Assembly: GCF_036323395.1 (NCBI RefSeq)
Contig: NZ_AP028907.1
Coordinates: forward strand, 450,001 to 482,000
Direction: 5' to 3'
DNA: 32,000 nucleotides
Source of the DNA: Pyrodictium abyssi
GTDB taxonomy: Archaea > Thermoproteota > Thermoprotei_A > Sulfolobales > Pyrodictiaceae
Positions 16,423 through 31,256 of the stretch are shown piece after piece (within the stretch, counting starts at the first letter, position 1; each line of letters starts with the position of its first letter). The notes beneath the pieces were generated by a model. The model worked only from the letters and a program-made list of their open reading frames with translations, did not search any database and had not been told where the DNA came from. The position numbers were made by a program, and so were the translations under genes.

Positions 16423-16625
16423 AGCTGGCCACGCCCTGGGTCTATGGTTGGGCGTGTGTTGCAGTTAGGTATTGCGAATCGTAGCCATGGCGGCGTTGGA
16501 TACGGGTTATAGTGGTGTTGGGTAGCCGCAGAAGGTGGCGGTAAACCCGCTATAGGAGAAGTGCGCAGCCACGGCTGCCGGGCAGCTACAGCTAGACGGT
16601 ATAGTGGAATCCGCGGTCCTATAGG

Positions 16626-18275
16626 CTAGGGGGCGCCGGTCAGTGGAGCTGTGGGCAGCATCATAGGGGCTATCACTAGCCGCGATATAATCTCCATGGC
16701 CTTTACGCCCGCTACGGTCACCACCGAGAGCACTGCCATGTGGAAGAGCGATGACTCCAGGATGCTCCCCCTGACATACGCAATTATCACGGAGTTTACG
16801 AGGGCCAGCATGGCCAGGAAAGCGGAGACCAGCCATGTTATAGTGCTTAGGTCTGGCAGGGTTATGGTAAACGGGAGGTAGCCCACAGCGCTGCTCTGGG
16901 AGAGGGAGCCCAAGGCCTCATAGTAGTGCCCGAACAACGCCAATATGTTTATTATGGCTGATGTTATCGCAGCTACAAGCGCCTGCATAAGGTACACCAC
17001 GGCCTCGAAGGTGCGGGCTACCCGCGACCTATCAGCCCGTAGATCGCTAAGACGGATAAACAGGTCGCTGAGGATGAGCCCCGTCTCCGCAGGGTCGCCG
17101 CCGGCTTCAACAGCGTCTACGAATACATTGTTGCCTCTCACTACATCACTGTTGCTCGTCTCGAGGCTAAGGTACCGGAAGGCTGTGCGCGGCTCCACGC
17201 CATTGGTCACCCTGGCGTAGAGCCTTCTAGCGTATACTGTCAGCGGGCCGTACTCCGCCGAGAGTACAGAGGAGAGCGCGCCCGCGTAGCTCGGGATTAC
17301 CGAGTACGTGAGGCCGAGGCTCCGGACGAACACCTGGTAGAAAGACCCCAGCCTAGCTATATAGCCTTCTACGCGTATAGCGTAGAAGCCCGGGATGAGC
17401 GCAGGGAGCGCTAGGCCTAGAATCGTGTAGCTCGGGTCCCCGGTAGCAAGGTACACCGCGGCCCCCCCGAGAGCTGAGAGCACGAGCCCGCCCCTTGTCA
17501 GCATCCTGAGCCTCGCCAGCGAGCGGTTCATAGAGGCGGCGCCGCGATAGACTACGGGGTCTCTAGGCGCAATATACCGTGCAGCGACGGCGAACACCGT
17601 TATCACGGCAAGGAGCGCGGTCATGGAGGCGGCCATGCTCCAGGTACTGCCCCCCATGAACACTGCCAGTACGGTAAACGTGAGGATTACGAACATCGAT
17701 GCGCTCATAAGGGTGGCGTAGAGCCCTAGGAATATCCTAAGCAGCTCTATAGACCTCATATAGCTGCTAGTGAACTGCCGCACAGAGGTGTCGAGCTCCA
17801 CACGGAGAAACTTGACCACGTCATCACCGGTTCTTAGGACCTCGCTTAGCCTGGTGAGGAAGTCGCGGAGATACCGGTTCGGAGCCTGTTTAGCGACGAG
17901 CCGTGTCGCCCGGACAAACCCGTAGCCCCACTCCACGGCCAGCACTGCTATGCGGCTCAGTGCCCGCCCATAGGCGCCGTAGTCCCCTACCAGGGGCCTT
18001 AGCTCGAAGAGGCGCCTCCTCTCGGGCCTACCCGTGGCCACGGCATACATGTGAGCCATCACGAATAGTAGGTCTATGTCGAGTCCTCCAGCGGCCCTCC
18101 TAGCAGCGGGCACTAGGACGCGCAGGAGAACCACCGGTAGGGGCAGTACTAGCCCTAGGTAGCCGAAGGGACCCGGCACCAGGATAGCCATCACGGCGGC
18201 TAGTACGAGGCCCGCGAGCACCACCGGGTCGAGTAGGATCCTTGAGGCGGGCTCGCCGCGCACGGCTGCTAGCAC
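16626..18275 (-). CDS. arlJ: Archaellum membrane platform protein ArlJ (FlaJ)
   Basis: 549-aa polytopic membrane protein. It is the last gene of the operon, 9 nt after arlI. Size and position match FlaJ. Confidence 0.85.
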   Translation of the reverse strand: MLAAVRGEPASRILLDPVVLAGLVLAAVMAILVPGPFGYLGLVLPLPVVLLRVLVPAARRAAGGLDIDLLFVMAHMYAVATGRPERRRLFELRPLVGDYGAYGRALSRIAVLAVEWGYGFVRATRLVAKQAPNRYLRDFLTRLSEVLRTGDDVVKFLRVELDTSVRQFTSSYMRSIELLRIFLGLYATLMSASMFVILTFTVLAVFMGGSTWSMAASMTALLAVITVFAVAARYIAPRDPVVYRGAASMNRSLARLRMLTRGGLVLSALGGAAVYLATGDPSYTILGLALPALIPGFYAIRVEGYIARLGSFYQVFVRSLGLTYSVIPSYAGALSSVLSAEYGPLTVYARRLYARVTNGVEPRTAFRYLSLETSNSDVVRGNNVFVDAVEAGGDPAETGLILSDLFIRLSDLRADRSRVARTFEAVVYLMQALVAAITSAIINILALFGHYYEALGSLSQSSAVGYLPFTITLPDLSTITWLVSAFLAMLALVNSVIIAYVRGSILESSLFHMAVLSVVTVAGVKAMEIISRLVIAPMMLPTAPLTGAP

Positions 18276-18284
18276 CCGGCAGCG

Positions 18285-20051
18285 CTACTTTATTAGCTCG
18301 CCGCGCTGTATCCTGCTAAGGGCTTCCTCGAGGGCCTCTACCACCGCGTAGGGGGCCTCCTCCTTGCTGACGCGGCGCGCGTGCTCTACTGTGAGCGCGT
18401 GTATCCTAGCCAGCGTGCGGAACACCTGGTAGTAGTTGAACACCTTTCTCTCTATCATGGCCCTTATTATCCGCGCTCTCAGCTCCAGCTCGTCGTATAT
18501 TATGAACATGTTCCGCCTAGAGAGGCCGCGTTTCACGCCTATCTTCTCCTCGAGGAGATAGCTGGTGCCCCTTCCGCGGAACGTGAAGCGGTCGCTAACA
18601 GGGTCCCAGGTGAAGGTGGGGACGTAGAGCGTCGAGCCGCTTTTCGGGTCGTACCCCATGATCTCGTTGACGCTGAGCACTCTGCGTACGAGCACGCCTT
18701 CGCGGTAGACGGCGCTCTGTATGACCACGAAGTTCAGATTGTCTAGCTGCGATTTGGGGACGTTTATCGGGGGAGATGTGAGCCTCTGTACGAGCCTCTC
18801 GACGCTCGCAGCGTGGAAGGTGGCTAGGACTGGGTGGCCTGTCTGCATCGCCTGGAACGCTATAAGACCCTCCGCCCCGCGTATCTCGCCGACGATTATG
18901 TAGTTAGGCCTCTGGCGGAGCGCGGCCTTGAGCAGGTCGAACATGGTTACGCTGGTCTCTGGGCTCCCCGTGTCGCGCGTGAGCTCCCGCACCCAGTTGG
19001 GGTGCGGCACGTTCAGCTCAGCAGTGTCCTCTATAGTCACTATCTTAGCGGTAGGGTTTATGAACGCCACGATAGCGTTGAGTGTGGTGGTCTTGCCGGA
19101 GGCTGTCTCGCCGGATACGAAGCCGCTGTTCCCCTCGAGTAGGAGCATCCACAGGTAGGCCGCTATGCGCTCGTCGAAGGTGTTCCAGCTAACGAGCTGC
19201 GTCACGCTCAGCGGTATCTTGGCGACACGGCGTATGGTGAAGTTGCTGCCCTGGAGGCTCACGTCTGTGCCGAAGACTATGTTTATCCTGCTGCCGTCGG
19301 GCAGCGTGGCGTCCACTATGGGCCTCGCGTGGCTCACGGGCTTCCCTATCCTCTCGCTAAGCTCTATGATGAACTTGTCGAGCTCCTCGTGGGTCTCGAA
19401 GCGGAGGCTTGTCTCGAGGGGGCCGAACACCTTATGGACTATGTATATGTTCCCGACGCCGGGGCAGGAGATGTCCTCTATGTAGGGATCCTTCAGCACG
19501 GGCTCCAGTATGCCTAACCCAGCCTTGTCCCTCAGCAGGTAGTACACCAGGTTCCTATAGTGCGCCTGGTAGACGGGCACCCTCCTAAGGCTGTGCACCC
19601 GGGGCAGCAGGGCACGGTAGTCCACGGGGCGGGGTACCCTCTCGGCTATCTCGCCCAGCTTCCGGAGCAGTATCCGCCTCCGCTCCTCCAGATCCCTCGC
19701 CACGTCGTTCTCTGTTATGACCGAGGCGAGCTTCTCCTCTACTAGGGCGAACAGCTCCCGGGGAGGCCTCTCCGGCTCCACAGCCACGTACTTCCTGTAC
19801 CCCGACTCACCGCCCCCCGGGGGCGTGTAGATGTGGATGAATATGCCAGCCTCCTCGTCCACCACGTACATGACGTTCAGCCTGGCGGCTTTCCGGAGGC
19901 TCCTCGGCAGCTCCCTCCCGTAGTACGCGGGAACGCCTACCCTCGCGGCGACAGCCCTAAGATAGCGGGCTAGGTGGGGGAACCTCCGCGCCAGCCTCCT
20001 CAGCTCCCCCGCCTCAGCGGCCTGCAGTGCGGCAGCCGCCATAGACGCCAC
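18285..20051 (-). CDS. arlI: Archaellum motor ATPase ArlI (FlaI; VirB11/PilT-type secretion ATPase)
   Basis: Walker A GETASGKTTTLNA. Walker B region PNYIIVGEIRGAEG. Also ATFHA. Length is 588 aa. Confidence 0.92.
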   Translation of the reverse strand: MASMAAAALQAAEAGELRRLARRFPHLARYLRAVAARVGVPAYYGRELPRSLRKAARLNVMYVVDEEAGIFIHIYTPPGGGESGYRKYVAVEPERPPRELFALVEEKLASVITENDVARDLEERRRILLRKLGEIAERVPRPVDYRALLPRVHSLRRVPVYQAHYRNLVYYLLRDKAGLGILEPVLKDPYIEDISCPGVGNIYIVHKVFGPLETSLRFETHEELDKFIIELSERIGKPVSHARPIVDATLPDGSRINIVFGTDVSLQGSNFTIRRVAKIPLSVTQLVSWNTFDERIAAYLWMLLLEGNSGFVSGETASGKTTTLNAIVAFINPTAKIVTIEDTAELNVPHPNWVRELTRDTGSPETSVTMFDLLKAALRQRPNYIIVGEIRGAEGLIAFQAMQTGHPVLATFHAASVERLVQRLTSPPINVPKSQLDNLNFVVIQSAVYREGVLVRRVLSVNEIMGYDPKSGSTLYVPTFTWDPVSDRFTFRGRGTSYLLEEKIGVKRGLSRRNMFIIYDELELRARIIRAMIERKVFNYYQVFRTLARIHALTVEHARRVSKEEAPYAVVEALEEALSRIQRGELIK

Positions 20052-20055
20052 CCCG

Positions 20056-20766
20056 CTAGGACTGAGCGAGCACTATAGGCACAATCTTTATCCCGAAGGC
20101 TGGGTCCACGTCGAATGCTACGCTCCCCTCAACCACGTCGGGGGCGCCCCGCGCCTTCACCACCCGGAGCACCCGCACCTGCTTGCCGCCAACGCTGGCG
20201 AGGCCCAGGCTGTAGTAGACATCGGCGGCCGCACGCAGCTCCAGCATAGCAGGCTCTCCGAGGACACCGGGATGCACCGTAGCGATGAACGAGACCCCGC
20301 GGGCCACGAGCCTGCGCGCCACGTAGACGAGCCTGCCCACAGCGCTGTCCCCAGCAGCGAGGGGGGTGAGAGAGTCCACGGCAATGGCGTCGAAGCCGCT
20401 GGCCCTCTCCGCCCAGGAGAGCAGCCGCTGCAGCAACACTCCGGGGGGCTCGTGCCTCACAGTGTAGGTGCTGTACACCCTAAGCGAGCCCTTCACGAAG
20501 TAGCGGACTAGGTCTATCCGCACACCCCGTGCCTGGAGGAGCAGGTGCCGCGCCGTGGACTCTGTAGTGAACAGCGCCACGCGGAGCCCCGAGGAGAGCA
20601 TGCCATAGGCTATCTGCAGCACGAGGGTCGTCTTAGCGGTGCCGTTACCCCCCTCCACAACTATGAAGGCTGGGTGCGGGACGCCGCCGCCTATACGGCT
20701 GTCCAGCTCCTCATTCCCAGTGCTGACTACCCGTATCACCCAGCTAGCCGGGGACAGGGAGCGCAT
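20056..20766 (-). CDS. arlH: Archaellum KaiC/RecA-like ATP-binding protein ArlH (FlaH)
   Basis: 236 aa, single RecA-like domain. Walker A VVEGGNGTAKTT and Walker B-like AIAVDSLTPL. It lies directly upstream of arlI (4-nt gap). Confidence 0.88.
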   Translation of the reverse strand: MRSLSPASWVIRVVSTGNEELDSRIGGGVPHPAFIVVEGGNGTAKTTLVLQIAYGMLSSGLRVALFTTESTARHLLLQARGVRIDLVRYFVKGSLRVYSTYTVRHEPPGVLLQRLLSWAERASGFDAIAVDSLTPLAAGDSAVGRLVYVARRLVARGVSFIATVHPGVLGEPAMLELRAAADVYYSLGLASVGGKQVRVLRVVKARGAPDVVEGSVAFDVDPAFGIKIVPIVLAQS

Positions 20767-21253
20767 AGCTGCAGCACACCCCCTCGCCGCTGCACACGAC
20801 GAGCCTAACCACCGAGCCGGGGTCGGGGGTGAGCGTCAAGTTGATCGCGAGCACCGCGGACTCGCCCGGCATTAGGGTGGCCGTGGAGCCCGGCCTAGCG
20901 CTGTAGGCCCTCCCACCCACGACCCTGTAGAGCACCCTCAGCCCCGCACCGTAGGGGAGCACATCGTGCCTGGTCACCCTGCCGCTGGTGTACACCGCCA
21001 CGGCTACCGCCCCCTCCCCTAGGCTGACCTCTACAGAGCCCTGGTTCTCCACGGTAACGTTGAGAGCCCCGCCCTCGATGGACGCGCCTACTACTGCTAG
21101 CTTCGCGCGGGCCCGGTACTCCAGGTACCCTGCGAGATCCCGGGCCTCCTCGAGGAACACAGTAGCATAGCCCGTCCAGGCCTCCACGAGCACCAGGGCG
21201 GCTGATACGAGGACTAGTACGCCGATAGCAGCGCCTATAGCGGCTGCCGACAA
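20744..21253 (-). CDS. arlF: Archaellum FlaF/FlaG-family protein (assigned ArlF by gene order)
   Basis: 169 aa. An N-terminal hydrophobic helix (IGAAIGVLVLVSAALVLV) is followed by a beta-rich domain. The start is TTG. The position between arlG and arlH matches the Sulfolobus order B-X-G-F-H-I-J. Confidence 0.6.
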   Translation of the reverse strand: MSAAAIGAAIGVLVLVSAALVLVEAWTGYATVFLEEARDLAGYLEYRARAKLAVVGASIEGGALNVTVENQGSVEVSLGEGAVAVAVYTSGRVTRHDVLPYGAGLRVLYRVVGGRAYSARPGSTATLMPGESAVLAINLTLTPDPGSVVRLVVCSGEGVCCSYALPVPG

Positions 21254-21260
21254 GCTCCTC

Positions 21261-21749
21261 TCACCCCGTGTAGCCCGCTTCGAGCCGGGACCCGCTAGGC
21301 AGCACCATCACTACCCGGTAGGGCGGCTCCACGCCTAGCGGCGGGCAGGCCTTCACCTCAAGGGTCTCCCGCTGCTCCCAGACCCCGTTAGGATTCTCGA
21401 TCTCCCGGTAGCTCCAGCAGCCCAGGCCCTGAGAGCAGTAGTCCATGTACTCTAGGAGGAAGGTCTCCGAGCCGTTGCCGAGGATGAGGGTAGCGTCCTC
21501 CACGCCCGCTATAGGCGCCTCGCCCACGTTCTTCAGGAACAGGTAGTGGCAGCCATCGCTCTCGTTGACGAAACCGTACACGAACACGGCCCGCTCCGAG
21601 AGCCCCCGCGCGGCGGCAGCGCTAGCCGAGGCTATGCGCCCGCCCAGGTAGGAGGCGTTGTACAGTATAGCGCTCGCCACTATCATAGTGGCTGTCACAG
21701 CGGCTATCACTAGTATGGCCTCCGCTATCGGTGTCGAGACTCCTCTCAA
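21261..21749 (-). CDS. arlG: Archaellum FlaF/FlaG-family protein (assigned ArlG by gene order)
   Basis: 162 aa. It has an archaellin-like N-terminus GVSTPIAEAILVIAAVTATMIVASA followed by a beta-rich domain. Its TTG start overlaps the arlX-like stop (TTGA). Confidence 0.6.
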   Translation of the reverse strand: MRGVSTPIAEAILVIAAVTATMIVASAILYNASYLGGRIASASAAAARGLSERAVFVYGFVNESDGCHYLFLKNVGEAPIAGVEDATLILGNGSETFLLEYMDYCSQGLGCWSYREIENPNGVWEQRETLEVKACPPLGVEPPYRVVMVLPSGSRLEAGYTG

Positions 21750-22405
21750 CCCCGCCTCTCCCCCAGAGCAGCCAGAGCGAGGGCGACACGCGGCTCCAAC
21801 CCCCTCTCCCTAGCCCGCTCGACAGCACGGGCTATGGCCGTGATACGCCTGGCCTCCTCCTCGGAGAGCACCCCGGCCCTAACGTACTCCCTCACTATCT
21901 CCTCAACGACGCCGGCCCCGCTCCTCTCCACGATCTCGCCGAGCGCCCTGATTGCGGCCTGAAGCCCCCCGTTGCCAGCAGTACCCGCCGGCCCGGCTAG
22001 GGGGTTGGAGGCCTCCGAGAGGGCCTCCCGCAGCTCGAGCACCACAGCCTCCACGCTGGAGACAAGCCCCTTGACCTCGTCGTGCAGCTTGTCCAGCTTC
22101 CCCTCGACGCCGGAGAGCCTCTCGAGGACGCTCCTAGCGCTCTCCTGGACCGCGCTCCTCACAGCGTCCACCACGTTCTCCGCCACCTTCTCCGCGACTT
22201 CGTCCACAGAGGGCACAGCCGCCGTCACCCCCACGGCCTCCTCCTGGGCCTCCACCTCCGGGCCAGCCTCCTCCCCCGCGGGCTCGCTAGCCTCCTCCGC
22301 CCCGGGCTCCGGGGACGGCCCGGGGCCCGCCTCCCCGCCGGCTCTACGCACAAGCGGCCACACGAGCAGCCTACAGATAGGGCAGCTACACCTCCATGCA
22401 GCCAT
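21746..22405 (-). CDS. arlX: ArlX-like (FlaX) coiled-coil protein lacking the expected N-terminal TM helix
   Basis: It occupies the crenarchaeal arlX slot between arlB and arlG. It has an acidic Pro/Glu linker, then heptad-like VDEVAEKVAENVVDAVRSAVQESARSVLERLSGVEGKLDKLHDEVKGLVSSVEAVVLELREAL. The N-terminus MAAWRCSCPICRLL carries a C.C..C motif and no TM helix. Confidence 0.55.
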   Translation of the reverse strand: MAAWRCSCPICRLLVWPLVRRAGGEAGPGPSPEPGAEEASEPAGEEAGPEVEAQEEAVGVTAAVPSVDEVAEKVAENVVDAVRSAVQESARSVLERLSGVEGKLDKLHDEVKGLVSSVEAVVLELREALSEASNPLAGPAGTAGNGGLQAAIRALGEIVERSGAGVVEEIVREYVRAGVLSEEEARRITAIARAVERARERGLEPRVALALAALGERRG

Positions 22406-22449
22406 GCAGCAGCGCCACCCCCTCGCCCCGGATGCACCCCTCCCCGGGG

Positions 22450-22743
22450 CTAGGCCCCCCGGAGGCTAGCAGCGCCCACGACGAGCCAGTGCAGGCCTAG
22501 CGCCAGCGCTAGCAAGCCCCCGCCCAGAGCCGCGTAGCCGCCCCCCAGCTCCCCCTCGAGCACCGCGTAGAGCACAAGCCCTCCTATCAGCGCCAGCACA
22601 GCGCCTATAGCCGTGAACACCGCGACAACCGCTCTCCCGCCCAAGGCTACGACAGCCTCCGCAAGGCAGCTGGAAAATGGTGCGCGGCCCGCTCGGCCGC
22701 GCCACGCGGAAAAACAGTGGGGCCGGGCTCCGGGGCTAGGCAC
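22450..22743 (-). CDS. Small two-TM membrane protein between arlB and the arlX-like gene
   Basis: It contains the hydrophobic segments AVVAVFTAIGAVLALIGGLVLYAVL and YAALGGGLLALALGLHWLVVGAA. The GTG at 22743 lies 10 nt after the arlB stop; an internal TTG start would give about 64 aa. The N-terminal third is Arg/Gly/Pro-rich and may not be translated. Confidence 0.45.
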   Translation of the reverse strand: MPSPGARPHCFSAWRGRAGRAPFSSCLAEAVVALGGRAVVAVFTAIGAVLALIGGLVLYAVLEGELGGGYAALGGGLLALALGLHWLVVGAASLRGA

Positions 22744-22753
22744 GGCCCACGGT

Positions 22754-23386
22754 CTAGCCGCCTACGATGAGGTCCACGAAGTCGCTGGTGAGTACCGGCG
22801 GTATCTCGTACCTCACGACCAGCGGCGCGCCTACCGGCGGCTTGATCTCTATCTGCACCTTGCTGTAAGGCGGGAGACCGTTAGTATCAGTAACGTTCAC
22901 CGCAAGCAGCATTACCTCACCAGGCTCTAGTAGTGTATTGTTGTTACCCTGGGCAGCGATCCATATGGCTTTGTAGGCTTGGACATTGTTTACAGCAGTT
23001 AGGTTTGTGGTATTGGTTATGTATATGTTTCCGTTTGCATCACGCTGTACTATATTGGCATTTGCGATGCTTGTGCCGTTTGGCTTTTGCACCAGCAGTG
23101 ATACTACTGTCTTATCTAGGTCTATTGGGTTAGTGCCTGCGGTGAGCTTTACCGGGAGGAATATCATGGTGGCCTGTCTCTCGCCGCTTATGGTCTGGAC
23201 CTCAGCTATGGCGTTACCTGCTACGTCTAGCGCTCTGGTGGCGGAGTCGTAGGCCTTGGCCATTACTTCTTTGCTCTTCTGGCTGGCGAACATGCCCATG
23301 TTTATCGCCACGAATGCTAGCGCGCTCGCCACTAGTACGAAGGCTATTAGGACGATCGCGGCCTCTATACCCACTATGGCTCTCAC
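22754..23386 (-). CDS. arlB: Archaellin ArlB (FlaB)
   Basis: N-terminus MRA/IVGIEAAIVLIAFVLVASALAFVAINMGMF is the class III signal and hydrophobic archaellin N-domain, with Gly at +3 relative to the predicted cleavage site. It is the first gene of the operon. The start is GTG, with a GGGGTGAG SD-like element 8 nt upstream. An in-frame stop at 23411-23413 prevents any longer leader. Confidence 0.88.
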   Translation of the reverse strand: MRAIVGIEAAIVLIAFVLVASALAFVAINMGMFASQKSKEVMAKAYDSATRALDVAGNAIAEVQTISGERQATMIFLPVKLTAGTNPIDLDKTVVSLLVQKPNGTSIANANIVQRDANGNIYITNTTNLTAVNNVQAYKAIWIAAQGNNNTLLEPGEVMLLAVNVTDTNGLPPYSKVQIEIKPPVGAPLVVRYEIPPVLTSDFVDLIVGG

Positions 23387-23606
23387 GCAGGGCTCACCCC
23401 TTGGGGGATCTCACCTTGTGTCTGGTGCTCGGGCCGTGTGGAGAGGCGGCCCGGCTGTTGGGGAAAAGCGACGTGAAGGCCCGGCCGGTTATGAGGCGCG
23501 TTGCGTATAGCCCCAGCGGAGCAGGCTAGGGGGCGGCTAGGTGCGCGGCCCATAGCCCCCGGGGCAAGGGTTAAGAGGGCGGTTCTGCACGATACTACAC
23601 GCGGGA

Positions 23607-23631
23607 CCAGGGGTAGCCCCGGCTGCCGCCC
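23607..23631. repeat. 25-bp perfect inverted repeat, left copy (partner 25899-25923)
   Basis: ccaggggtagccccggctgccgccc is the exact reverse complement of 25899-25923. It lies in the arlB / KaiC-A divergent intergenic region. Confidence 0.95.
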
Positions 23632-23720
23632 GAGGAGCCGGGCCCGGCAGCATTAATCAGAAACCGTTTCTCCCAACCCGTACCCCGGGCCCCGGCCCGC
23701 CCGCCCGCGGAGGACAACCC

Positions 23721-23927
23721 ATGAAGAAGCGGAGCCTCCTCGCCCGCGCTCTAGGCGTCGTAGCGCTCTTCGCCTCCATAGGGGTCTGGGCGGCTGGCGC
23801 GGCACCAGCCTCTATAGCGTTGCTAGCCGCCGCAGCGCTAGCCGTGCAAGACGGCTTCGAGGAGCCCGCGGCCGCTCTCCCAGGCCAGTGCCTCTCCTGG
23901 GAGCCCTGGAGGTGCGCACTGCTATGA
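23721..23927 (+). CDS. Small (68 aa) membrane or signal-peptide protein translationally coupled to KaiC-A
   Basis: The ATG is preceded by GGAGG (7-nt spacer). The sequence is MKKRSLLARALGVVALFASIGVWAAGAAPASIALLAAAALAV. Its TGA overlaps the KaiC-A ATG (ATGA at 23924-23927). Confidence 0.5.
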   Translation: MKKRSLLARALGVVALFASIGVWAAGAAPASIALLAAAALAVQDGFEEPAAALPGQCLSWEPWRCALL

Positions 23928-25399
23928 ACCTGGTGGAGTGGGGGATCGAGGGGCTGGATAAGCTGCTCGGCGGTGTTCCTCGTGGGGCTGTTGTGCTTCT
24001 CGCTGGGAACCCTGGTACTGGTAAGTCTACTTTCGCGGCGAAGTTCCTCTACGAGGGTGCGCGGCGCCTCGGCGAGCCCGGGGTGTACCTCAACTTCGTC
24101 GAGCCCCGCCAGGACTTCCTCAGCCACATGGCCATGCTCGGCATGGACTTCGAAAGCCTCGAAGAGAAGGGACTATTCCACTACGTAGAAGCACTAACAA
24201 TCGTAGACGAGGAGGCTCTTGTGGCTCAGCTGGAGGAGCTCGAGAGCCTCGTGCGCGAGACGGGCGCGAAGAGGCTGGTAGTAGACAGTATAACTGTCAT
24301 AATGCAGCTCGTGAATGGCGTTTCCAAGGCCAGGGAGCTGCTGCAGAACTTCTTCGTTAACGGGCTCAAGCCCCTCGGCGTCACCTCGATACTCATAGCG
24401 GAGCACCCCTACGGGGCCCGCATGGTAGGATACGGCATCGAGGAGTTCATAGTAGACGCCGTCGTTCTGCTCCGCTTCGAGAGCCACGCGGGGAAGATGC
24501 GGAGGGTGCTCGAGCTGCGTAAGGCACGCTGGGCCCCGATATACCAGGTGGAGCTGCCCTTCGAGATACTCCCCGGCAGGGTGGTAGACATTGCTGTGCC
24601 GGAGGAGCCGAAGTCCGTCCCAGCGCCGGTGGGGGAGAGGGTGTACAGCTTCGCAGACATAGCCCGTGCAGCCCGGCGGCCGGGGCGCCAGCCTCTCGTG
24701 CGCACGCTCCTCCCCTCGGGCTCGCCGCTGCCCGTAGAGGTAGCGAGCTCCGTCTACTTTTCGCAGGGCTCGCAGGTGCTCGTACATGTTAGCGAGAGCA
24801 TACACACGAGGTTCCTAGTAGCGTTGCTGGCAGCCACACTCCACGTGTACACCGGGGAGAAGGTGGCGGTATTCAGCTTCAAGTCGGCGCCGTCGCTGCT
24901 GGAGCGGATGACGCGCTGCGTATACTCGATCATGTCGGGTGCAGCGGGCCCCGGAGACGGCATAGTATTCGATGCGGTAAACCCCTCGGCCTACCTGCCG
25001 GAGCACATAGTCTCCCAGCTCCGCGGCCTCGTGGAGAGCGAGAAGCCCTCCCTCCTCTTCCTGGAGGGCATAGAGGGCCTAGAGGAGCTCTACGGTGCAG
25101 CCCTCCACAGCATGATGGTGAACGTGCCCTACATGCTGCGCCGGCTCGGCGTAACCACGCTGTACTTCTACGCCAGCGACGCGGCGCCGCAGGAGAAGCG
25201 CATGCTACGCCTCCTACGCATCGCAGCCGACATGAAGATAGACGTCTACCCACAGGCGCTCGAGACGAAGCTGGACCAGAGAGGCAGGAAGAGGCTCGTG
25301 CAAAAATACCGCATGTGGGTCAAGACGCCGACAGTACGCCTGGAGATAGTTAAGGAGTTCGACATGCAGCCCCTCATGGAGAGGCGCTGCGTCTACTAG
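23924..25399 (+). CDS. Two-domain KaiC-like ATPase, paralogue A (second domain lacks a P-loop)
   Basis: Domain 1 has Walker A GNPGTGKST and Walker B-like RLVVDSITV. Domain 2 is homologous in pattern but has GSQVLVHVSESIHTRF where a P-loop is expected. The preferred start is the ATG at 23924 (GGAGGTG SD upstream, ATGA coupling); the track ORF begins at 23888. Confidence 0.85.
   Translation: MNLVEWGIEGLDKLLGGVPRGAVVLLAGNPGTGKSTFAAKFLYEGARRLGEPGVYLNFVEPRQDFLSHMAMLGMDFESLEEKGLFHYVEALTIVDEEALVAQLEELESLVRETGAKRLVVDSITVIMQLVNGVSKARELLQNFFVNGLKPLGVTSILIAEHPYGARMVGYGIEEFIVDAVVLLRFESHAGKMRRVLELRKARWAPIYQVELPFEILPGRVVDIAVPEEPKSVPAPVGERVYSFADIARAARRPGRQPLVRTLLPSGSPLPVEVASSVYFSQGSQVLVHVSESIHTRFLVALLAATLHVYTGEKVAVFSFKSAPSLLERMTRCVYSIMSGAAGPGDGIVFDAVNPSAYLPEHIVSQLRGLVESEKPSLLFLEGIEGLEELYGAALHSMMVNVPYMLRRLGVTTLYFYASDAAPQEKRMLRLLRIAADMKIDVYPQALETKLDQRGRKRLVQKYRMWVKTPTVRLEIVKEFDMQPLMERRCVY
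23968..24216. repeat. 249-bp perfect inverted repeat, copy in KaiC-A (partner 29748-29996 in KaiC-B)
   Basis: Checked in 10-nt blocks: 23968-24216 equals the reverse complement of 29748-29996 with no mismatch. It covers about codons 16-98, including Walker A. The sequence diverges on both sides. Confidence 0.95.
24335..24459. repeat. 125-bp inverted repeat with 1 mismatch, copy in KaiC-A (partner 29505-29629)
   Basis: Block-by-block comparison found a single difference at 24422 (a vs g). It encodes ELLQNFFVNGLKPLGVTSILIAEHPYGAR.VGYGIEEFIVDA. It is separated from the 249-bp block by 118 diverged nt. Confidence 0.9.
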
Positions 25400-25695
25400 C
25401 GCCTACGCCGCCTGGCCGGCAGCGCGTAGAGCGGAACCCCGTCCACGATCCTCTTCTCCACAAGCCCCTGCCGTACAAGCTTCTTCAGCTTCCTCCAGGC
25501 AACGCTGCGGTGGACGCCTAGCTGCCTCGCTATCTCGCTCGCCCGGAGGGGCCTCCCGGACTCTGCGAGCACTCGTAGAATAGCCTCGTCCCTCTCATCA
25601 AGCCCGTTCTCCCCGACCACCGGCGCCTCGCCGCCCCGCCAGAGTTCCGAGACGATATCGAGTAGCCGGGATACACGGGAACGGAGAGACAGCAA
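25396..25695 (-). CDS. Small winged-helix transcriptional regulator (MarR/ArsR-like)
   Basis: 99 aa. DEAILRVLAESGRPLRASEIARQLGVHRSVAWRKLKKLVRQGLV. It is convergent with KaiC-A and overlaps its end by 4 nt. The start is TTG. Confidence 0.65.
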   Translation of the reverse strand: MLSLRSRVSRLLDIVSELWRGGEAPVVGENGLDERDEAILRVLAESGRPLRASEIARQLGVHRSVAWRKLKKLVRQGLVEKRIVDGVPLYALPARRRRR

Positions 25696-25898
25696 CGCCG
25701 AGACACCGTTCCATACCAGAAGCCAGCACGCCCCTTAGCTACCCGCGCAGAGGCGTATTACGACTCAAGCATAGGAGGATATATAGAGGGCGCGGAGCCT
25801 ACTGGCACGTATTAAAACGGCACTGTGGCAGGCCCACCATGCTAACCTCCGCTAACTATAAACGAGCGACAACAATCCCTACTACACCTGCGGGGCGA

Positions 25899-25923
25899 GG
25901 GCGGCAGCCGGGGCTACCCCTGG
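25899..25923. repeat. 25-bp perfect inverted repeat, right copy (partner 23607-23631)
   Basis: gggcggcagccggggctacccctgg read directly. The core is shared with 71-91. Confidence 0.95.
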
Positions 25924-26148
25924 ACCCTCGGCGGCGGGGACGGTGACCCCGCGCGTGGGGGAGGCCCCGCCGCCCACGCCTACCCTCTATGCTTCTTGCC
26001 TCCTCTCTCCCAGCACCCGGTCCGCTGCACCCCGGGTTCCCCGCGGGAGCCGCTTATAGACCAGTCTGCACCGGTAAATATGCCGCCGGGGGGGGGGGTA
26101 CTTTATGTATTTCGTATTCCGCTCTCCCCGCAGTACGAGAGAGCCGGC

Positions 26149-27246
26149 CTAGCCCCCGACTGTGTCATGGCCTCCAAGGTGCTCGTTGAGCTGCTCCACG
26201 TATTTGAAGCCGTTGTCGGGGAAGACGAGGACGTAGTCGCCGTCCTCCAGCTCCCCGCTGTCCAGCAGCCTCGTGAAGGCTGCGGCGACGGCTCCGCTGC
26301 TCATGCCGGGGAGTATGCCGTCCCGGCGGGCCACTGTCAGCAGCGCCTCTATCGCCTCGCGCCGGGTCACCTCTACCACGCGGTCGGGCTTGACCCAGTG
26401 TATCCACTTCATCCCGGTCTCTATCCTGCGTATGCCGGGTATGACCTCGCCCCGGGCGGGCTGCACTGTGTAGATCTTCACGCCGCCCACCCTGTTGCGG
26501 AAGTAGAATGTTATCGCGGCCATGTGGCCTGAGGTGCCGATGCCCCCGATTATGCCCCGAGGCTTTATACCGGCGTGGCGTAGCTGTAGCTCGAGCTCCT
26601 TGGCCATGTAGCGGAGGTGTACCAGGAAGTTGGCGTCGTTGCTGAACTGGTCTATGTGGAGTGCCCCGTCCCGGGCAGCATCCCTCTTCACGTCCTCTAG
26701 CAGCTCGACGGTGAGCTGCTTCCCGGCCCGGACAACCTCGGCACCCAGGGCCCGTAGCAGGGTATCGCTCGCCCGCTGTATGACCCGGGGGATGTAGAGC
26801 CTAGCCCGGAACCCGTATATAGCGGCCATAGCGGCGAGCGCCATGCCCGTATTGGTCGAGGTCGCCTCGTAGACTAGGCTACCCTGCCAGCCGTTCTCCA
26901 GCGCCCGGCGGACCATGTACCAGCCTACGCGGTCCTTGACGCTCATACTGTAGGGGTTGTACCACTCGAGCTTAGCCCAGGCCCTCACCCCGCCGCTGAA
27001 GAGGCTACGCAGCATGACAAGGGGCGTAGGCCAGCCGCGGTAGAGAAGCTCCAGCGTGTCCCGGAAAACCCTCATCGGCGAGGGGTCTATGTCCTCGTAG
27101 AACCCCATATCCTCGAGGCTAGCCTCCACGGGCACGGGGTTCTCCTGCGACACGGGTACACGGCGGACGCCGAGTAGCCGGAGAGCCCAGACTAGGCGGC
27201 GCGCCTCCTCGCCCACTACTCTAACGGATCCGTGTACTGGTATCAC
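26149..27246 (-). CDS. PLP-dependent cysteine synthase of the archaeal O-phosphoserine sulfhydrylase type
   Basis: Motifs: LEWYNPYSMSVKDR (PLP lysine), STNTG, GIGTSGHM, IPGIRRIETGM, GDYVLVFPDNGFKY. This motif set and the long N-terminal extension resemble the characterised Aeropyrum pernix O-phosphoserine sulfhydrylase, as I recall its sequence. Confidence 0.8.
   Translation of the reverse strand: MIPVHGSVRVVGEEARRLVWALRLLGVRRVPVSQENPVPVEASLEDMGFYEDIDPSPMRVFRDTLELLYRGWPTPLVMLRSLFSGGVRAWAKLEWYNPYSMSVKDRVGWYMVRRALENGWQGSLVYEATSTNTGMALAAMAAIYGFRARLYIPRVIQRASDTLLRALGAEVVRAGKQLTVELLEDVKRDAARDGALHIDQFSNDANFLVHLRYMAKELELQLRHAGIKPRGIIGGIGTSGHMAAITFYFRNRVGGVKIYTVQPARGEVIPGIRRIETGMKWIHWVKPDRVVEVTRREAIEALLTVARRDGILPGMSSGAVAAAFTRLLDSGELEDGDYVLVFPDNGFKYVEQLNEHLGGHDTVGG
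26179..26236. repeat. 58-bp perfect direct repeat, copy 2 (partner 13593-13650)
   Basis: Lies inside the 3' end of the intact cysteine synthase gene and is identical to 13593-13650. Confidence 0.95.
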
Positions 27247-27330
27247 TCCTCGATCCCCCGCTGCGGAGGAGAGCAGCTAGCAGGTCTAGCAGCTCCTCGA
27301 GCCCTGGAGCCTCTCCGGCATCAAGCTCCT

Positions 27331-27836
27331 CTATGGGCATGAGTGTATAGCCAGCCAACCCGGTGCACACCACCACTGCTCATGCGTGTACAGGGTCTCG
27401 GGATGGGGGTGTGGGCGCCCCTCCACACTCGGGTCTAGGGTAGATCCTCGAGAGGCGTATCTGCCCGGGGGCTCGAAGCAGACCCGGTGGCGGCTAGTCC
27501 TGGGCGGTAGGAGCTTGCCCTCGAGCCCAGCTCTAAGCACTGTAGCCTTGTCAACGTGTAGCCCGGGCCTCCACGAGCCGGCCTCTACGCACGGCGGGCT
27601 GTAGTCGACTAGTACTGCTGGTACACGGCGGGCGCCGAGGCGGCAGAGCGCCGACACCCGGTGGTGCCGTCGAGTATGACTAGTGTCTTCGTGTCTACCA
27701 GTACTGGGCGCTCTACCCGGCCTCTACGCCGTATATCCTCTACCAGCTTCTCAACCCTCTGCGGCTCAACTATCTCGTGGGCGCGTAGACGCTCTAGAGG
27801 GACTAGTGCCACCCTGTAGAGCCTGGCTACGCTCAT
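27331..27836 (-). pseudogene. ParB/sulfiredoxin-fold protein (SerK-like serine kinase candidate) interrupted by a frameshift in the DGHHR motif
   Basis: ORF 27609..27836 reads ...LERLRAHEIV...PVLVDTKTLVILDG and then runs out of frame. ORF 27331..27657, shifted by one nt, continues HHRVSALCRLGARRVPAVLVDY. Restoring one C in ggc(c)accacc at about 27663-27668 recreates ILDGHHRVSAL. The gene sits directly upstream of the cysteine synthase gene. Confidence 0.7.
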
Positions 27837-27862
27837 GCCTGCTAGCGCCTTGCACCCCAGCC

Positions 27863-27883
27863 GCCTATAACACTGTTATAGGC
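27863..27883. promoter_or_regulatory. 21-bp perfect palindrome gcctataaca-c-tgttataggc containing TATA-like cores
   Basis: Read directly. It lies 27-47 nt upstream of the SerK-like ATG (27836). That spacing is compatible with a TATA box for a leaderless or short-leader transcript overlapped by an operator. Confidence 0.45.
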
Positions 27884-28022
27884 TTAATTAGTGTTTCTCT
27901 CACTGATTACGAACCTAACGATAATATAGAGACTAACCCTCCCGGCCGGAGGCTAGGCACCCAGCGGCAGAGAGTGGCTCCCGCTAGCTCACCCGCCCAG
28001 AAGGTAACGCGCCCTGCAGGCG

Positions 28023-28337
28023 CTAGCCCGAGGCGCGCTGTATAAGCCGCTTAACCGGCTCCGGGTCCCCCTTCTCAAGCGCGGTGATAGCATTGAGGAC
28101 CTCGGGCGCGGACCGGGAGAACGCGAGCAACACGCTACGGAGGATGACGCGGGCCTTACGGGGGTCCCGCTGGTAGGAGAGGAGGACCCTGTAGGCGGCC
28201 AGGGGGTCGCGCACCAGGAGGGTGGCAAAGTCCACACGGTACGCGGCGAACGCCCTGTTATCAAGCACAGCGAGGGCACCCATAGCGACGGAGCGTAGCC
28301 GCTCACGGACAAGCTGTACCGCTCGGCCGCTCGGCAT
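28023..28337 (-). CDS. Hypothetical helical protein (104 aa) downstream of KaiC-B
   Basis: ATG-initiated ORF on the same strand as KaiC-B, with a plausible amino-acid composition. No family was recognised. Confidence 0.45.
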   Translation of the reverse strand: MPSGRAVQLVRERLRSVAMGALAVLDNRAFAAYRVDFATLLVRDPLAAYRVLLSYQRDPRKARVILRSVLLAFSRSAPEVLNAITALEKGDPEPVKRLIQRASG

Positions 28338-28543
28338 AAGCGTTCGGCCCCTCTACCATAATGTCTACGTCTACTATGATGCAGGCTCAGCCTACGCCGC
28401 TGGATGGTCTAGCACGAGCCAATTTAATAACAGCACGCAACAGCCCCGGCCCCTAGGGCTAACGACGGCCAGAGGCCCTCTCGTTGTCCCTCCCCGTCTA
28501 TGGCTGTGTGTAGTGGTGTAGTGGGCGGGCTTCCTGCGTGCCC

Positions 28544-30091
28544 CTAGCCTATGCAGTGCAGTTCTGCGAGCTTCTGTGTATTCACCGACATGTTAAAGTG
28601 TAGGTGTGCTAGCTGGTGGTAGACCTCCACAGCCAGGTCTAGTGTGAGCCCCTTGAACCTCTCCGCGGCGAGGTCTGATAGCCTGCAGGGGCTCGTCTCC
28701 ATGTACATGCCCATATCGAACATAGGCGCCAGGGCAAGCTCCGACATGGCTGAGCGTACTGGGAACGAGTAGATGTAGAACCCTGTTATCCCGTTCCTCT
28801 TGTTGCGCAGCAGCGTGTTGTACAGGTTGTAGGTCAGGTCCTTTGCCTCCACCATGGACTCGAGGATCTCGAGGCCCTCGAATATCGTTATCTCCGGCCT
28901 TATCTTCTGCATAGCCAGGTACATTATATCGTTGAGCTCGTTAACTGTGTACACGCTCGGGTTGAGCGACATCACGTGTAGCTGCTGGAGCCTCTTAATG
29001 GCTTCAACATCTTGCTCGGCGCCGGTGCCTAGTATGCAGCGCGCCATGTTTGATATAGCCTGGGGGCTCGACTTGAAGCTTATGACCAACACATCAGCCG
29101 GCGTGCCCATGATGAAGGAGGTCGCGAGCATCGAGGCGACGAGCCTGCTGTTTACAGTAGTCGAGAGGCCTATGAGCACCTGAGCGCCCCGCGGCACGGA
29201 GAGGACGCGGCAGAGCATGCCTAGAGCCTCGCGGGCCTCCTGCATCGAGCCGGGCACGCTGATGCGCACGATGTTCTTGCCGTCTACGCGTAGCGCGCCC
29301 AGCAGCTCGCAGAGGTTGTAGGTCTTAGTGACGTCGAATGGTGGTACCTCCTCGGGCTCCTCTGGCAGGCTTATCTCTATGACGACGCCGGGCCTCATGT
29401 AGAAGGGTAGCTCGGCCTGGTGTATGGGGGCCCAGCGGGCCTTACGCAGCTCTAGTATGCGCTGAAGCTTGCCCTGCTCTATCTGGAACCTGAGGATAAA
29501 CACCGCGTCTACTATGAACTCCTCGATGCCGTATCCTACCACGCGGGCCCCGTAGGGGTGCTCCGCTATGAGTATCGAGGTGACGCCGAGGGGCTTGAGC
29601 CCGTTAACGAAGAAGTTCTGCAGCAGCTCGCGTATCTTGGCCTTGTCTCGGACTATCTGGAGCATAGCCGTTATACTGTCTATTACTATCCTCTTGGCTT
29701 TGACCTCTTCTACGAGTTTTAGAACCTCCTCTAGCTGTGATATGAGGGCCTCCTCGTCTACGATTGTTAGTGCTTCTACGTAGTGGAATAGTCCCTTCTC
29801 TTCGAGGCTTTCGAAGTCCATGCCGAGCATGGCCATGTGGCTGAGGAAGTCCTGGCGGGGCTCGACGAAGTTGAGGTACACCCCGGGCTCGCCGAGGCGC
29901 CGCGCACCCTCGTAGAGGAACTTCGCCGCGAAAGTAGACTTACCAGTACCAGGGTTCCCAGCGAGAAGCACAACAGCCCCACGAGGAACACCGCCGTTGA
30001 GGAGCCTGTCGAGGCCTGGTATGCCTGAGGGCACAATCTCTATACGTTGGGTGGAGACGCCGAGGTCTTGCATCAGATCCCTGGTTTTCAT
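28544..30091 (-). CDS. Two-domain KaiC-like ATPase, paralogue B (second domain lacks a P-loop)
   Basis: Walker A GNPGTGKST and Walker B-like RIVIDSITA. The second domain has GAQVLIGLSTTVNSRL in place of a P-loop. The C-terminal half is visibly less GC-rich and strongly diverged from KaiC-A. Confidence 0.85.
   Translation of the reverse strand: MKTRDLMQDLGVSTQRIEIVPSGIPGLDRLLNGGVPRGAVVLLAGNPGTGKSTFAAKFLYEGARRLGEPGVYLNFVEPRQDFLSHMAMLGMDFESLEEKGLFHYVEALTIVDEEALISQLEEVLKLVEEVKAKRIVIDSITAMLQIVRDKAKIRELLQNFFVNGLKPLGVTSILIAEHPYGARVVGYGIEEFIVDAVFILRFQIEQGKLQRILELRKARWAPIHQAELPFYMRPGVVIEISLPEEPEEVPPFDVTKTYNLCELLGALRVDGKNIVRISVPGSMQEAREALGMLCRVLSVPRGAQVLIGLSTTVNSRLVASMLATSFIMGTPADVLVISFKSSPQAISNMARCILGTGAEQDVEAIKRLQQLHVMSLNPSVYTVNELNDIMYLAMQKIRPEITIFEGLEILESMVEAKDLTYNLYNTLLRNKRNGITGFYIYSFPVRSAMSELALAPMFDMGMYMETSPCRLSDLAAERFKGLTLDLAVEVYHQLAHLHFNMSVNTQKLAELHCIG
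29505..29629. repeat. 125-bp inverted repeat with 1 mismatch, copy in KaiC-B
   Basis: Reverse complement of 24335-24459 except for one position. Confidence 0.9.
29748..29996. repeat. 249-bp perfect inverted repeat, copy in KaiC-B
   Basis: Exact reverse complement of 23968-24216. Confidence 0.95.
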
Positions 30092-30346
30092 GGCTTTATC
30101 CCTCGCCTCATTATGTATTCACCCCGGTCGCCCCTAGCACCCGCGTAGTAGGGTACACAACTCTTGGGCGTTCTAAATCTTAGACAGTTGCACGCGCTCC
30201 TGGCCTCTGGAGGGCCAGGCTCTAGGGTGAAGCCGTGATAGTCTTGTTGGCCTCTGCGCGTGCTATGGCCTCATAGATAGCTTAGGCCGGCTGCTAGGAT
30301 ATATCTCCTTCTTTCTCTATTGCTCGCTGCTGCTGTGGGTTGAAGG

Positions 30347-31237
30347 CTAGCTGACTACAGCTGGCGAGGCCAGGTAGGCCAGTATACTAGCTATTGTAAG
30401 CGTTATTATGTACTTGGAGGCCATCAGTGTGTATCCGTGGACAACCCTGGCTATCACAATAGCTGAGGCTACCACTATCACGAGAAGGGAGTAGAAGTAG
30501 AGGCCTCCAAGCAGGTCCGGGTCTATCGCTGCGCCGAAGAGCCCGCCCCCAGCTACCCCTGCTACGAGCGCCTGGACAATGCCAGCAGCCACGGCGTACG
30601 TTAGCGAAGCCAGGGATACGACAAAGCTGTACTCCGATAGGCGGGACTGCGTGAGCTTCATCAGGCGGCGGCTCTCCCGGGAGTAAACCGCCGCGGAGGA
30701 GAGCACCTCGTGCACCATGCCGCCGCTCAGCGACGCGGCGACTATGCTGCGGGCTAGTAGCCTCACGCGGGGCGGGGCTCTCTTGAAGGCCTCCTCGAAG
30801 GCCTTCTCGAGGTCCCCGGTGGCGCGGTAGATGTGGGCCATGCGCTCCACGTAGGTGCCTAGCGGCGGTTTAATCATCTTCGCGGCCCTCAGCAGCGCCT
30901 CAGCCGTGGAGCCGCTTGACGCGGTCAGCCCAGCGTAGGTGGAGAGCAGCTCTGCTAGCTGCTCGTCGAAGATGTCCATGACCCTTACGAAGCGCCTAGC
31001 GTAGAGGTATACGGGTAGCGAGGCCGCCGCGAGGACCCCTGCTATGAGTATCATTGTCCCCTTGTCTGTGACCACTGGTATGAAGTGGAAGAGCTGCACC
31101 CGGTACCGGGGCGTAATCCAGTCGATGCCTAGTACAGTGGCCAGCTTGGGGGCTAGCAGCGGGTAGCCGGTTATCCAGGCTATGGCCAGCCCCACCGCGG
31201 CAGCGAGCACGAGGACTCTGGCTATGGCCCCGGTCAC
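30347..31237 (-). CDS. Half-size T2SSF-domain membrane protein (TadC/FlaJ-half-like platform subunit)
   Basis: 296 aa: TM, then a cytoplasmic helical domain FDEQLAELLSTYAGLTASSGSTAEALLRAAK...YRATGDLEKAFEEAFKR, then C-terminal TMs. The GTG start has a GGAGGGGAGG SD 12 nt upstream. Confidence 0.7.
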   Translation of the reverse strand: MTGAIARVLVLAAAVGLAIAWITGYPLLAPKLATVLGIDWITPRYRVQLFHFIPVVTDKGTMILIAGVLAAASLPVYLYARRFVRVMDIFDEQLAELLSTYAGLTASSGSTAEALLRAAKMIKPPLGTYVERMAHIYRATGDLEKAFEEAFKRAPPRVRLLARSIVAASLSGGMVHEVLSSAAVYSRESRRLMKLTQSRLSEYSFVVSLASLTYAVAAGIVQALVAGVAGGGLFGAAIDPDLLGGLYFYSLLVIVVASAIVIARVVHGYTLMASKYIITLTIASILAYLASPAVVS

Positions 31238-31256
31238 GGCGGCAGCGCCTCCCCTC

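Follow-up and report, generated by a model that had tools for sequence, protein, structure and literature searches.

Proteins of the KaiC family have been linked to loci that encode archaella and type IV pili (T4P) (PMC4858521). T4P subclade 4B combines a KaiC protein (arCOG01174) with an alpha-helical partner (arCOG03758) (Makarova et al. 2016, PMC4858521); in Haloferax volcanii, the gene for the KaiC-like protein CirA is located inside the arl cluster, in the opposite orientation, and CirA represses arl transcription (PMC10983859); and ArlH, which is itself KaiC-like, gates the ArlI ATPase (PMC8978795). The association of the KaiC family with archaellum and T4P loci and the existence of KaiC-like motility regulators (CirA, ArlH) are thus already known. 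Here we analyze a 32-kb stretch of the genome of the archaeon Pyrodictium abyssi (hereafter, the window) in which a cassette of three genes is located next to the archaellum gene arlB. The cassette consists of a small putative open reading frame (ORF), the gene for a two-domain KaiC-like protein that we denote KaiC-A, and a convergent gene for a small winged helix-turn-helix (wHTH) protein, and it is divergent from arlB across a 334-bp region. This layout was described correctly, at all positions, in the original prediction, an annotation made from the sequence alone, which suggested that the cassette could be an uncharacterised KaiC-based module for archaellum control; given the published work on CirA and on the KaiC linkage with archaella and T4P, the concept as such is not new. 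What is new is the two-domain subfamily of KaiC-A, its substitution for the regulator ArnR, the genomic island context and the tracts of gene conversion.

The cassette is a positional replacement of ArnR beside arlB. We fetched the arl loci of other Pyrodictiaceae through their ArlB homologs, namely those of Pyrodictium delaneyi (two assemblies), Pyrofollis japonicus, Pyrodictium sp. DIMAG01 and three metagenomic populations (n=7), and in all seven a protein of 284-316 aa with an N-terminal wHTH domain and two C-terminal transmembrane (TM) helices is encoded divergently from arlB. This protein matches the ArnR model of NCBIfam (NF041016) over its full length, with E values from 1e-20 to 1e-27; because the scores are below the equivalog cut-off, we consider it a distant homolog of ArnR. 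The expectation that the cassette sits where an archaellum regulator should be is thereby borne out. No ArnR homolog was detected among the scanned ORFs of the window, nor was anything else Arn-like, as had been noted originally. The gene order of the arl operon in the window is the same as in the relatives.

The promoter of arlB has been remodelled as well. Upstream of arlB, 10 of the 11 Pyrodictiaceae arl loci (L081-L091) contain, next to a TTAAAA box, the palindrome TCGCC-N5-GGCGA, which closely mirrors the ArnR box of Sulfolobus acidocaldarius, TCGAC-N5-GTCGA (PMC6396743). No such palindrome is present in the 334-bp upstream region of arlB in the window, where the only AT-rich element is CATTAATCA (23651-23659), and both the ArnR-box-like palindrome and the TATA box have been lost. 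Given that ArnR and its box are missing and the arl genes are all intact, some other form of control must exist. The arlB gene has a GC content of 0.62 at third codon positions, compared to 0.72-0.83 in the other arl genes. In P. delaneyi, Pyrofollis and one additional locus (L089), arlB is followed by a gene of about 260 codons that is absent from the window and from L085/L098.

The whole archaellum cluster, including the cassette, is contained within a block of about 12.5-12.6 kb that has the hallmarks of insertion, either Campbell-type or site-specific, at the 3' end of a gene. The block is flanked by direct repeats with a 63-nt core that is 98.4% identical (89% over 88 nt); the right copy is located inside the 3' end of the gene for a pyridoxal phosphate (PLP)-dependent enzyme, and the left copy is followed by the ancestral tail of the PLP gene and the ancestral spacer between this gene and a SufS-like gene, which can be aligned to the PLP gene end, spacer and SufS start of a related locus (L093). 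In L093, the PLP gene is separated by only 52 nt from the SufS-like gene, that is, the site is empty; the counterparts in the window are 12.6 kb apart. The start of the SufS-like gene of L093 aligns with positions 12271-13521 of the window at 87.5% protein and 84% DNA identity, and on the other side of the block, a close relative (L092) is collinear with positions 26375-32000 of the window at 85% DNA identity, with the genes for two T2SSF proteins, a KaiC, a small helical protein (o104), a ParB_N-like protein and the PLP enzyme. Three features expected of an integrated genomic island are present: a direct repeat at either end, the location of one copy within the 3' end of the target gene, and a relative in which the site is empty. 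No integrase or recombinase family was matched among the scanned ORFs of the block and of the window (short overlapping ORFs were left out), and no tRNA that could serve as an attachment site was found in the window.

The remaining content of the block is what accompanies arl genes in the relatives. A protein of 138 aa (TM-wHTH), in which an N-terminal TM helix is combined with a wHTH domain at the C-terminus, shares 32% identity with the ArnR-like HTH domain (pairwise E 1e-6) and has a homolog (57% identity) in another arl locus (L098, 11993-12499), 3' of the CARDB gene downstream of arlJ, a locus that also encodes ArnR; TM-wHTH is, as judged by sequence, a possible further membrane-bound regulator linked to the archaellum. 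As TM-wHTH, the CARDB gene and the arl genes are all conserved arl neighbors in the relatives, the KaiC-A cassette is the sole non-canonical content of the block.

KaiC-A is a KaiC-family protein that probably forms hexamers. The Pfam KaiC family (PF06745) matches only aa 5-224 (9.8e-58; 195.7 bits compared to a cut-off of 26.6), and the N-terminal domain contains the Walker A motif GNPGTGKS and the Walker B motif VVDS that characterize the family; no Pfam family at all is matched by the C-terminal 260 aa in the Pfam scan. An AlphaFold2 model built with 43 family sequences as the input (pLDDT 91.7, pTM 0.87) aligns in Foldseek with full-length two-domain KaiC across about 500 columns with TM-scores of 0.72-0.74, indicating that, the lack of a family match notwithstanding, the C-terminal part is predicted to be a second RecA/KaiC-like domain. 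VHVSESIHTR occupies the P-loop position of this domain, where GK[ST] is found in none of the family members, in agreement with the early observation that the first P-loop is intact and the second domain inactivated. The N-terminal domain is closer to CI (139.5 bits) than to CII (55.6 bits), aligns with the CI domain of cyanobacterial KaiC with E values of 1e-38 to 1e-57, and carries EE where the phosphorylation sites of CII would be; the C-terminal domain shows no sequence match to CII and, lacking GK[ST], is not a CII domain of the clock type. These features speak against the phosphorylation-dependent control that had been proposed. The C-terminal domain most likely serves as a docking surface for a partner. 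A comparison to subfamily profiles placed KaiC-A firmly in the Pfam KaiC family and in none of the curated ones: it scores 99 bits with the NCBIfam circ_KaiC model (cut-off 546) and falls below all the NCBIfam trusted cut-offs for the archaeal KaiC subfamilies (TIGR03877/78/80/81), the best being KaiC_arch_3 with 118 versus 249 bits. No KaiB-like Pfam match was found among the scanned ORFs of the window, and neither KaiA nor KaiB was seen within it. The ATG codon of KaiC-A is preceded at 9 nt by GGAGGTG.

KaiC-A is a member of a family of two-domain KaiC proteins, centred on Pyrodictiaceae, in which the C-terminal domain is dead, and a second member of this family, KaiC-B, is encoded 3 kb away in the tail of a T4P-like operon. 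The operon order T4P ATPase-T2SSF-T2SSF-KaiC-B-o104 was observed in seven complete and three partial Pyrodictiaceae loci (among L002-L013), as well as in L092 and two further sampled populations (L093-L096 and L097). The small helical protein of this operon consists of 104-112 aa, and in the Pyrodictium relatives, a ParB_N-like gene and then the PLP gene come after its gene; distant family members retain a small partner gene (104-128 aa) even outside pilus operons. A DEATH-like fold has been suggested for this partner in the literature; a single-sequence AlphaFold2 model of o104 (pLDDT 71.7) has six helices and yielded no significant Foldseek match, which speaks neither for nor against that suggestion. 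In contrast to KaiC-B, KaiC-A is not preceded by a T4P ATPase gene and two T2SSF/TadC-like genes. The two paralogs in the window are 80% identical in the N-terminal domain and only 23% identical in the C-terminal domain, which in KaiC-A nevertheless retains the family motifs QVL, SFKS.P, NP.AY, KP...EG and Y.Y. In one Pyrodictiaceae metagenome-assembled genome (MAG), the KaiC-B ortholog is split into two overlapping ORFs (L012, 9917-11535), which suggests a frameshift. The ParB_N-like gene, which is intact in L092, L093, L094 and L097, is represented in the window by two overlapping ORFs (27331-27836, minus strand) that give a single ParB_N-like protein (..ILDG|HHRVSAL..) when one base is restored, and is either a frameshifted pseudogene or a sequencing error; the repaired ORF has no Pfam match, and its intact homologs match ParB_N weakly.

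Intact proteins with a C-terminal domain of the KaiC-A type are exceedingly rare. The sole one apart from KaiC-A itself is encoded in a Hyperthermus MAG (P0002) and is 51% identical to KaiC-A in this domain. A HMMER search with the C-terminal domain of KaiC-A against 1.84 billion representative sequences retrieved KaiC-A's own cluster, two fragments of a pseudogene in the window, one foreign fragment (P0215) and distant proteins of the KaiC-B type, and a scan of metagenomes with an alignment of this domain produced chance pattern matches, with none confirmed among the matches listed. Between KaiC-A and P0002, dN for the C-terminal domain is 0.44, compared to a dS of about 2.2 (saturated); therefore, the dead domain is constrained by purifying selection rather than decaying. 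The pseudogene is a third two-domain copy in the window, of the KaiC-A type, and was recognized through a Pfam KaiC fragment and a tblastn alignment of aa 8-491 of KaiC-A across frames -3/-2/-1/-2. In its vicinity, there are a PIN-domain gene (2422-2904) and a gene for an archaeal ATPase_2/MCM_C-wHTH protein (5075-6145). The P0215 fragment, which comes from another genome, is similar to the pseudogene. KaiC-A is an old, rare, diverged offshoot of the two-domain KaiC built into the Pyrodictiaceae T4P operon. A recent local duplication of KaiC-B was considered as the origin of KaiC-A and is ruled out by the 23% identity of the C-terminal domains and by the ortholog in the Hyperthermus MAG; likewise, the second KaiC of P. 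delaneyi (L016) is not an equivalent of KaiC-A, being a different KaiC in a different context. In two giant proteins, P0216 (2787 aa) and P0217 (1966 aa), 4-5 repeated stretches each match the KaiC-A pseudo-ATPase domain (aa 48-135) weakly.

KaiC-A and KaiC-B have undergone recent gene conversion that is confined to the ATPase domain. The two genes have diverged to saturation, with a DNA identity of about 40-65%, except in two tracts, in which 83 of 84 (tract 1) and 41 of 43 (tract 2) third codon positions are identical, as opposed to 41-53% outside the tracts. The protein sequence encoded in the tracts is 89-100% identical to the KaiC-B orthologs and only 73-76% identical to the KaiC-A ortholog, and for this reason, KaiC-B is the likely donor. 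There is no conversion tract shared by the pseudogene and either KaiC-A or KaiC-B. About 150 kb separate the pilus locus from the arl locus in DIMAG01, and no arl genes are present within 6-10 kb of six other pilus loci. Considering that the two loci are separate in the relatives, the proximity of KaiC-A and KaiC-B came with the insertion, and hence, the conversion tracts most likely post-date it. Because the two genes are mutually inverted, the tracts, above all the identical one of 251 bp, could mediate an inversion that would exchange the C-terminal halves and so swap the archaellum-side and pilus-side domains; such an inversion was not observed.

The other two genes of the cassette are less readily classified. 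The small ORF is preceded by GGAGG and has an ambiguous codon-position GC pattern; it is missing upstream of the only KaiC-A ortholog. The view of this ORF as a membrane protein is consistent with its hydrophobic segment, and as a gene it is putative. The wHTH protein is an orphan that matches many HTH families in Pfam (best E value 2e-11) and resembles Lrp/AsnC/Lrs14 proteins at the HTH level only, with Lrp/AsnC-type domains being the closest among the solved HTH domains; the NCBIfam matches are weak (Sta1, 2e-7; Lrs14, 2e-6). We also considered the possibility that a split arnR gene gave rise to both the wHTH gene and the small ORF and rejected it since there is no similarity to ArnR (pairwise E 0.49 for wHTH) and the two genes are on opposite strands.

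The three genes are bracketed exactly by the arms of a 32-nt inverted repeat that are 94% complementary and delimit a segment of 2.3 kb. The 29-mer of the arm has two matches in the window compared to none in 100 shuffles, and each arm lies upstream of the TATA-like element of an inward-facing transcription unit. The 8-mer TACTACAC has only two copies on the plus strand of the window, one beside each arm and in direct orientation. No additional copies of the 25-nt core of the repeat were detected by exact search in 91 fetched loci or in metagenome contigs, and an Rfam search of the whole window at gathering thresholds and of positions 23300-26250 at E<=1 gave nothing credible.

Table 1. Features of the 32-kb P. 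abyssi window discussed in the text (window coordinates).
Feature	Position	Strand	Description
KaiC-A	23924-25399	+	491 aa; two-domain KaiC-like protein
KaiC-A N-domain	to 24610	+	CI-like P-loop ATPase domain (by sequence)
KaiC-A C-domain	24611-25396	+	RecA-like pseudo-ATPase without P-loop
Small ORF	23721-23927	+	68 codons; hydrophobic aa 4-42; putative gene; TGA overlaps KaiC-A ATG as ATGA
wHTH	25396-25695	-	99 aa, orphan, no effector domain; converges on KaiC-A, stop codons overlap
Inverted repeat, left arm (32 nt)	23600-23631	+	90 nt upstream of small-ORF ATG; abutted by TACTACAC at 23593
Inverted repeat, right arm (32 nt)	25899-25930	-	204 nt upstream of wHTH start; TACTACAC at 25880
Divergent intergenic region	23387-23720		334 bp, GC-rich; between arlB and small ORF
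arl operon	16626-23386	-	arlJ, arlI, arlH, arlF, arlG, arlX, 97-aa TM ORF, arlB (Pfam/NCBIfam); all frames intact
arlJ	16626-18275	-	Part of arl operon
arlH	20056-20766	-	Inside arl operon; single-domain, CII-like by NCBIfam
arlB	22754-23386	-	Pfam Arch_flagellin, 1.7e-30
Inserted block	13656-26178		About 12.5-12.6 kb; TM-wHTH, CARDB protein, arlJ-arlB, small ORF, KaiC-A, wHTH
Left direct repeat	13582-13669 (core 13593-13655)		Relic 3' fragment of PLP-enzyme gene
Right direct repeat	26168-26255 (core 26179-26241)		Inside 3' end of functional PLP gene
Functional PLP (CysK/M-like) gene	26149-27246	-	Now ends in different codons
TM-wHTH	13679-14095	-	138 aa; N-terminal TM helix, C-terminal ArnR-like wHTH; conserved arl-cluster neighbor
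KaiC-B	28544-30091	-	Second family member, 3 kb from KaiC-A; directly after two T2SSF/TadC-like genes
o104	28023-28337	-	104-aa all-helical partner, 3' of KaiC-B
T2SSF_a	30347-31237	-	Pfam; T4P-like operon tail
T2SSF_b	31257-31961	-	Pfam; T4P-like operon tail (28023-31961)
Conversion tract 1	23966-24216 / ~29751-30001	+ in KaiC-A	251 nt identical to KaiC-B; spans Walker A region
Conversion tract 2	24335-24459 / 29505-29629	+ in KaiC-A	125 nt, 1 mismatch to KaiC-B
KaiC pseudogene (third copy)	273-1717	-	KaiC-A-type, two-domain; at least 3 frameshifts, four ORF fragments

Among the described systems, CirA is similar to KaiC-A in that both are encoded by KaiC-family genes beside arl genes and in the opposite orientation. 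Experiments with CirA demonstrate that a protein of this kind is able to control arl transcription and motility. CirA, the published description of which we use for this comparison, is euryarchaeal, whereas KaiC-A contains an additional dead RecA-like domain and is encoded in the ArnR slot on an inserted island. The pair of arCOG01174 and arCOG03758 would correspond to KaiC-B and o104, with the operon ATPase-TadC-TadC-KaiC-partner fitting the published description. KaiC-A is a paralog of this family that shares the fold and the core motifs of the C-terminal domain, but it is encoded outside any T4P operon, has no partner and is highly diverged in the C-terminal domain. ArlH and KaiC-A share the RecA/KaiC fold with a P-loop; ArlH, however, is a single-domain, CII-like protein encoded within the operon, whereas KaiC-A is a two-domain, CI-like protein encoded outside it that scores 45.9 bits with the NCBIfam ArlH model, compared to the cut-off of 215. 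With ArnR and ArnR1, the one-component activators of Sulfolobus, the cassette has in common its genomic position divergent from arlB, but none of its parts is homologous to ArnR, and the wHTH protein does not match NF041016. The two-domain architecture and fold are common to KaiC-A and cyanobacterial KaiC, from which KaiC-A differs in that its CII-equivalent domain lacks Walker A and the S/T phosphorylation sites and in the catalytic glutamates of CI discussed below. Proteins of the Lrs14/AbfR1 type are small, stand-alone wHTH regulators of crenarchaeal motility and biofilm of about 100 aa. The wHTH protein of the cassette is similar to these in size and in being stand-alone, but it scores only 27.8 bits with the Lrs14 model (cut-off 90), and because no homolog was found, its membership in this group is unsupported. 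A Nitrososphaerota MAG has a KaiC gene at a distance of about 2 kb downstream of an arlG-H-I-J cluster (L022, 2037-11398), an independent case of KaiC-archaellum adjacency.

We propose, with a probability of roughly 40%, that the KaiC-A cassette supplies a part of the control of archaellum production that is carried by the island. Under this scenario, the wHTH protein would act on the shared upstream DNA, with the 32-nt element that precedes each of the two inward-facing units as the candidate operator, and KaiC-A, through its nucleotide state, would modulate either the wHTH factor or the ArlH/ArlI motor, in a genetic parallel to the role of CirA in Haloferax. Every functional link between the cassette and the archaellum is one that we infer. 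Several lines of evidence speak for this scenario: ArlH and CirA are precedents for KaiC-like proteins that act on the archaellum, the cassette occupies the slot of a regulator (ArnR in 7 of 7 loci, the palindrome in 10 of 11), the block otherwise contains only arl-linked genes, the closest paralogs are physically built into the operon of a T4P machine, the pseudo-ATPase domain evolves under purifying selection, and the inverted repeat brackets the three genes and is located upstream of the TATA-like elements of both units. Other observations weigh against it. ArnR may be encoded elsewhere in the 2.2-Mb genome, outside the window. The N-terminal domain of KaiC-A retains only one of the two catalytic glutamates of CI (FVE instead of FEE), and canonical phospho-signalling by a KaiC-style autokinase seems unlikely, because the CII-equivalent domain is dead. 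The gene for the helical partner, which follows nearly all other family members, is missing after both KaiC-A and P0002, and the neighbors of P0002 are a cellulase, a methyltransferase and a CBS protein, with no arl gene within about 6 kb. Accordingly, the survey of gene neighborhoods did not bear out the anticipated conserved linkage of this subfamily, which is nearly unique, to arl genes; of the proposed control module, it is the position in the regulator slot that stands, whereas the function is a matter of interpretation and the conserved linkage is not seen. A far-reaching version, in which a movable archaellum island carries its own control unit that replaced ArnR, with the membrane peptide, KaiC-A and wHTH acting via the 32-nt operator, and, inserted beside the resident pilus operon, is being rewired by gene conversion with the pilus KaiC, strikes us as distinctly improbable.

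The cassette could instead be accessory cargo that came with the rearrangement that removed ArnR and has no role in motility, with arlB run by TM-wHTH or by an unlinked ArnR, or expressed constitutively, an explanation that we consider somewhat less likely than archaellum control. With one unlinked ortholog, one pseudogene in the window and the P0215 fragment, the subfamily is very small and unstable, and the fact that the second copy of the KaiC-A type in the window is a pseudogene makes the lineage look dispensable. Each of the three genes forms a singleton cluster at 90% identity in the protein collection, a word-indexed search for homologs of wHTH returned only the query, the three-gene set is not conserved elsewhere as a unit, and the island includes a conserved neighbor, TM-wHTH, that could control arlB on its own. 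Mere cargo would, however, hardly be expected to retain an intact reading frame and a C-terminal domain under purifying selection, nor does it explain why the replacement is exactly in the regulator slot, why the ArnR box was lost with ArnR and why all other content of the island is arl-linked. Should KaiC-A act on the pilus side, that is, work with the neighboring T4P machine, for example in mixed hexamers with KaiC-B, or cross-regulate pili versus archaella, the homogenization of the oligomerizing ATPase domain by the two tracts (251 nt and 125 nt, with KaiC-B the likely donor) at a distance of 3 kb would be readily understandable, all the more so as KaiC-B-type genes are fixed members of T4P operons and as ArnR/ArnR1 and CirA each connect pili with archaella in model organisms. 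We regard this role as unlikely given that the C-terminal domains are only 23% identical, that KaiC-A lacks an o104-type partner and that KaiC-A belongs to the inserted block and the T4P operon to the resident DNA; it was thus the insertion that brought the two genes close together, and the conversion may be a mere by-product of it. Finally, the inverted repeats might be recombination sites instead of operators, and the 2.3-kb segment between them, mobile or invertible DNA. The 94% complementarity of the arms, their enclosure of exactly three genes, the placement of TACTACAC beside each arm and the lineage specificity of the cassette fit this view, but there is no transposase or recombinase gene among the scanned ORFs in or near the segment, no canonical target-site duplication and no further copy of the arm in the 91 fetched loci or the metagenome scan; furthermore, the two putative promoters are themselves enclosed by the arms, and an inversion would therefore not switch expression, and we deem this explanation very unlikely.

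The control of archaella in crenarchaea is understood almost only from the Arn network of Sulfolobus, and the locus described here is a natural swap of the ArnR gene together with its promoter box in which the structural operon was kept intact. If KaiC-A and wHTH indeed drive arlB, KaiC-type control of motility would extend from the haloarchaeal CirA to Thermoproteota, and a compact module of two or three genes would become available for study; if the island moreover carries its own control unit, no earlier example of a transcriptional switch based on KaiC would exist for the archaellum of a crenarchaeon. Whatever the function of the cassette, the repeat-bounded block of 12.6 kb and the empty site in a relative are direct evidence of the ability of a whole archaellum cluster to move as a unit, and the tracts shared by KaiC-A and KaiC-B present a clean case of domain-restricted gene conversion between signalling paralogs.

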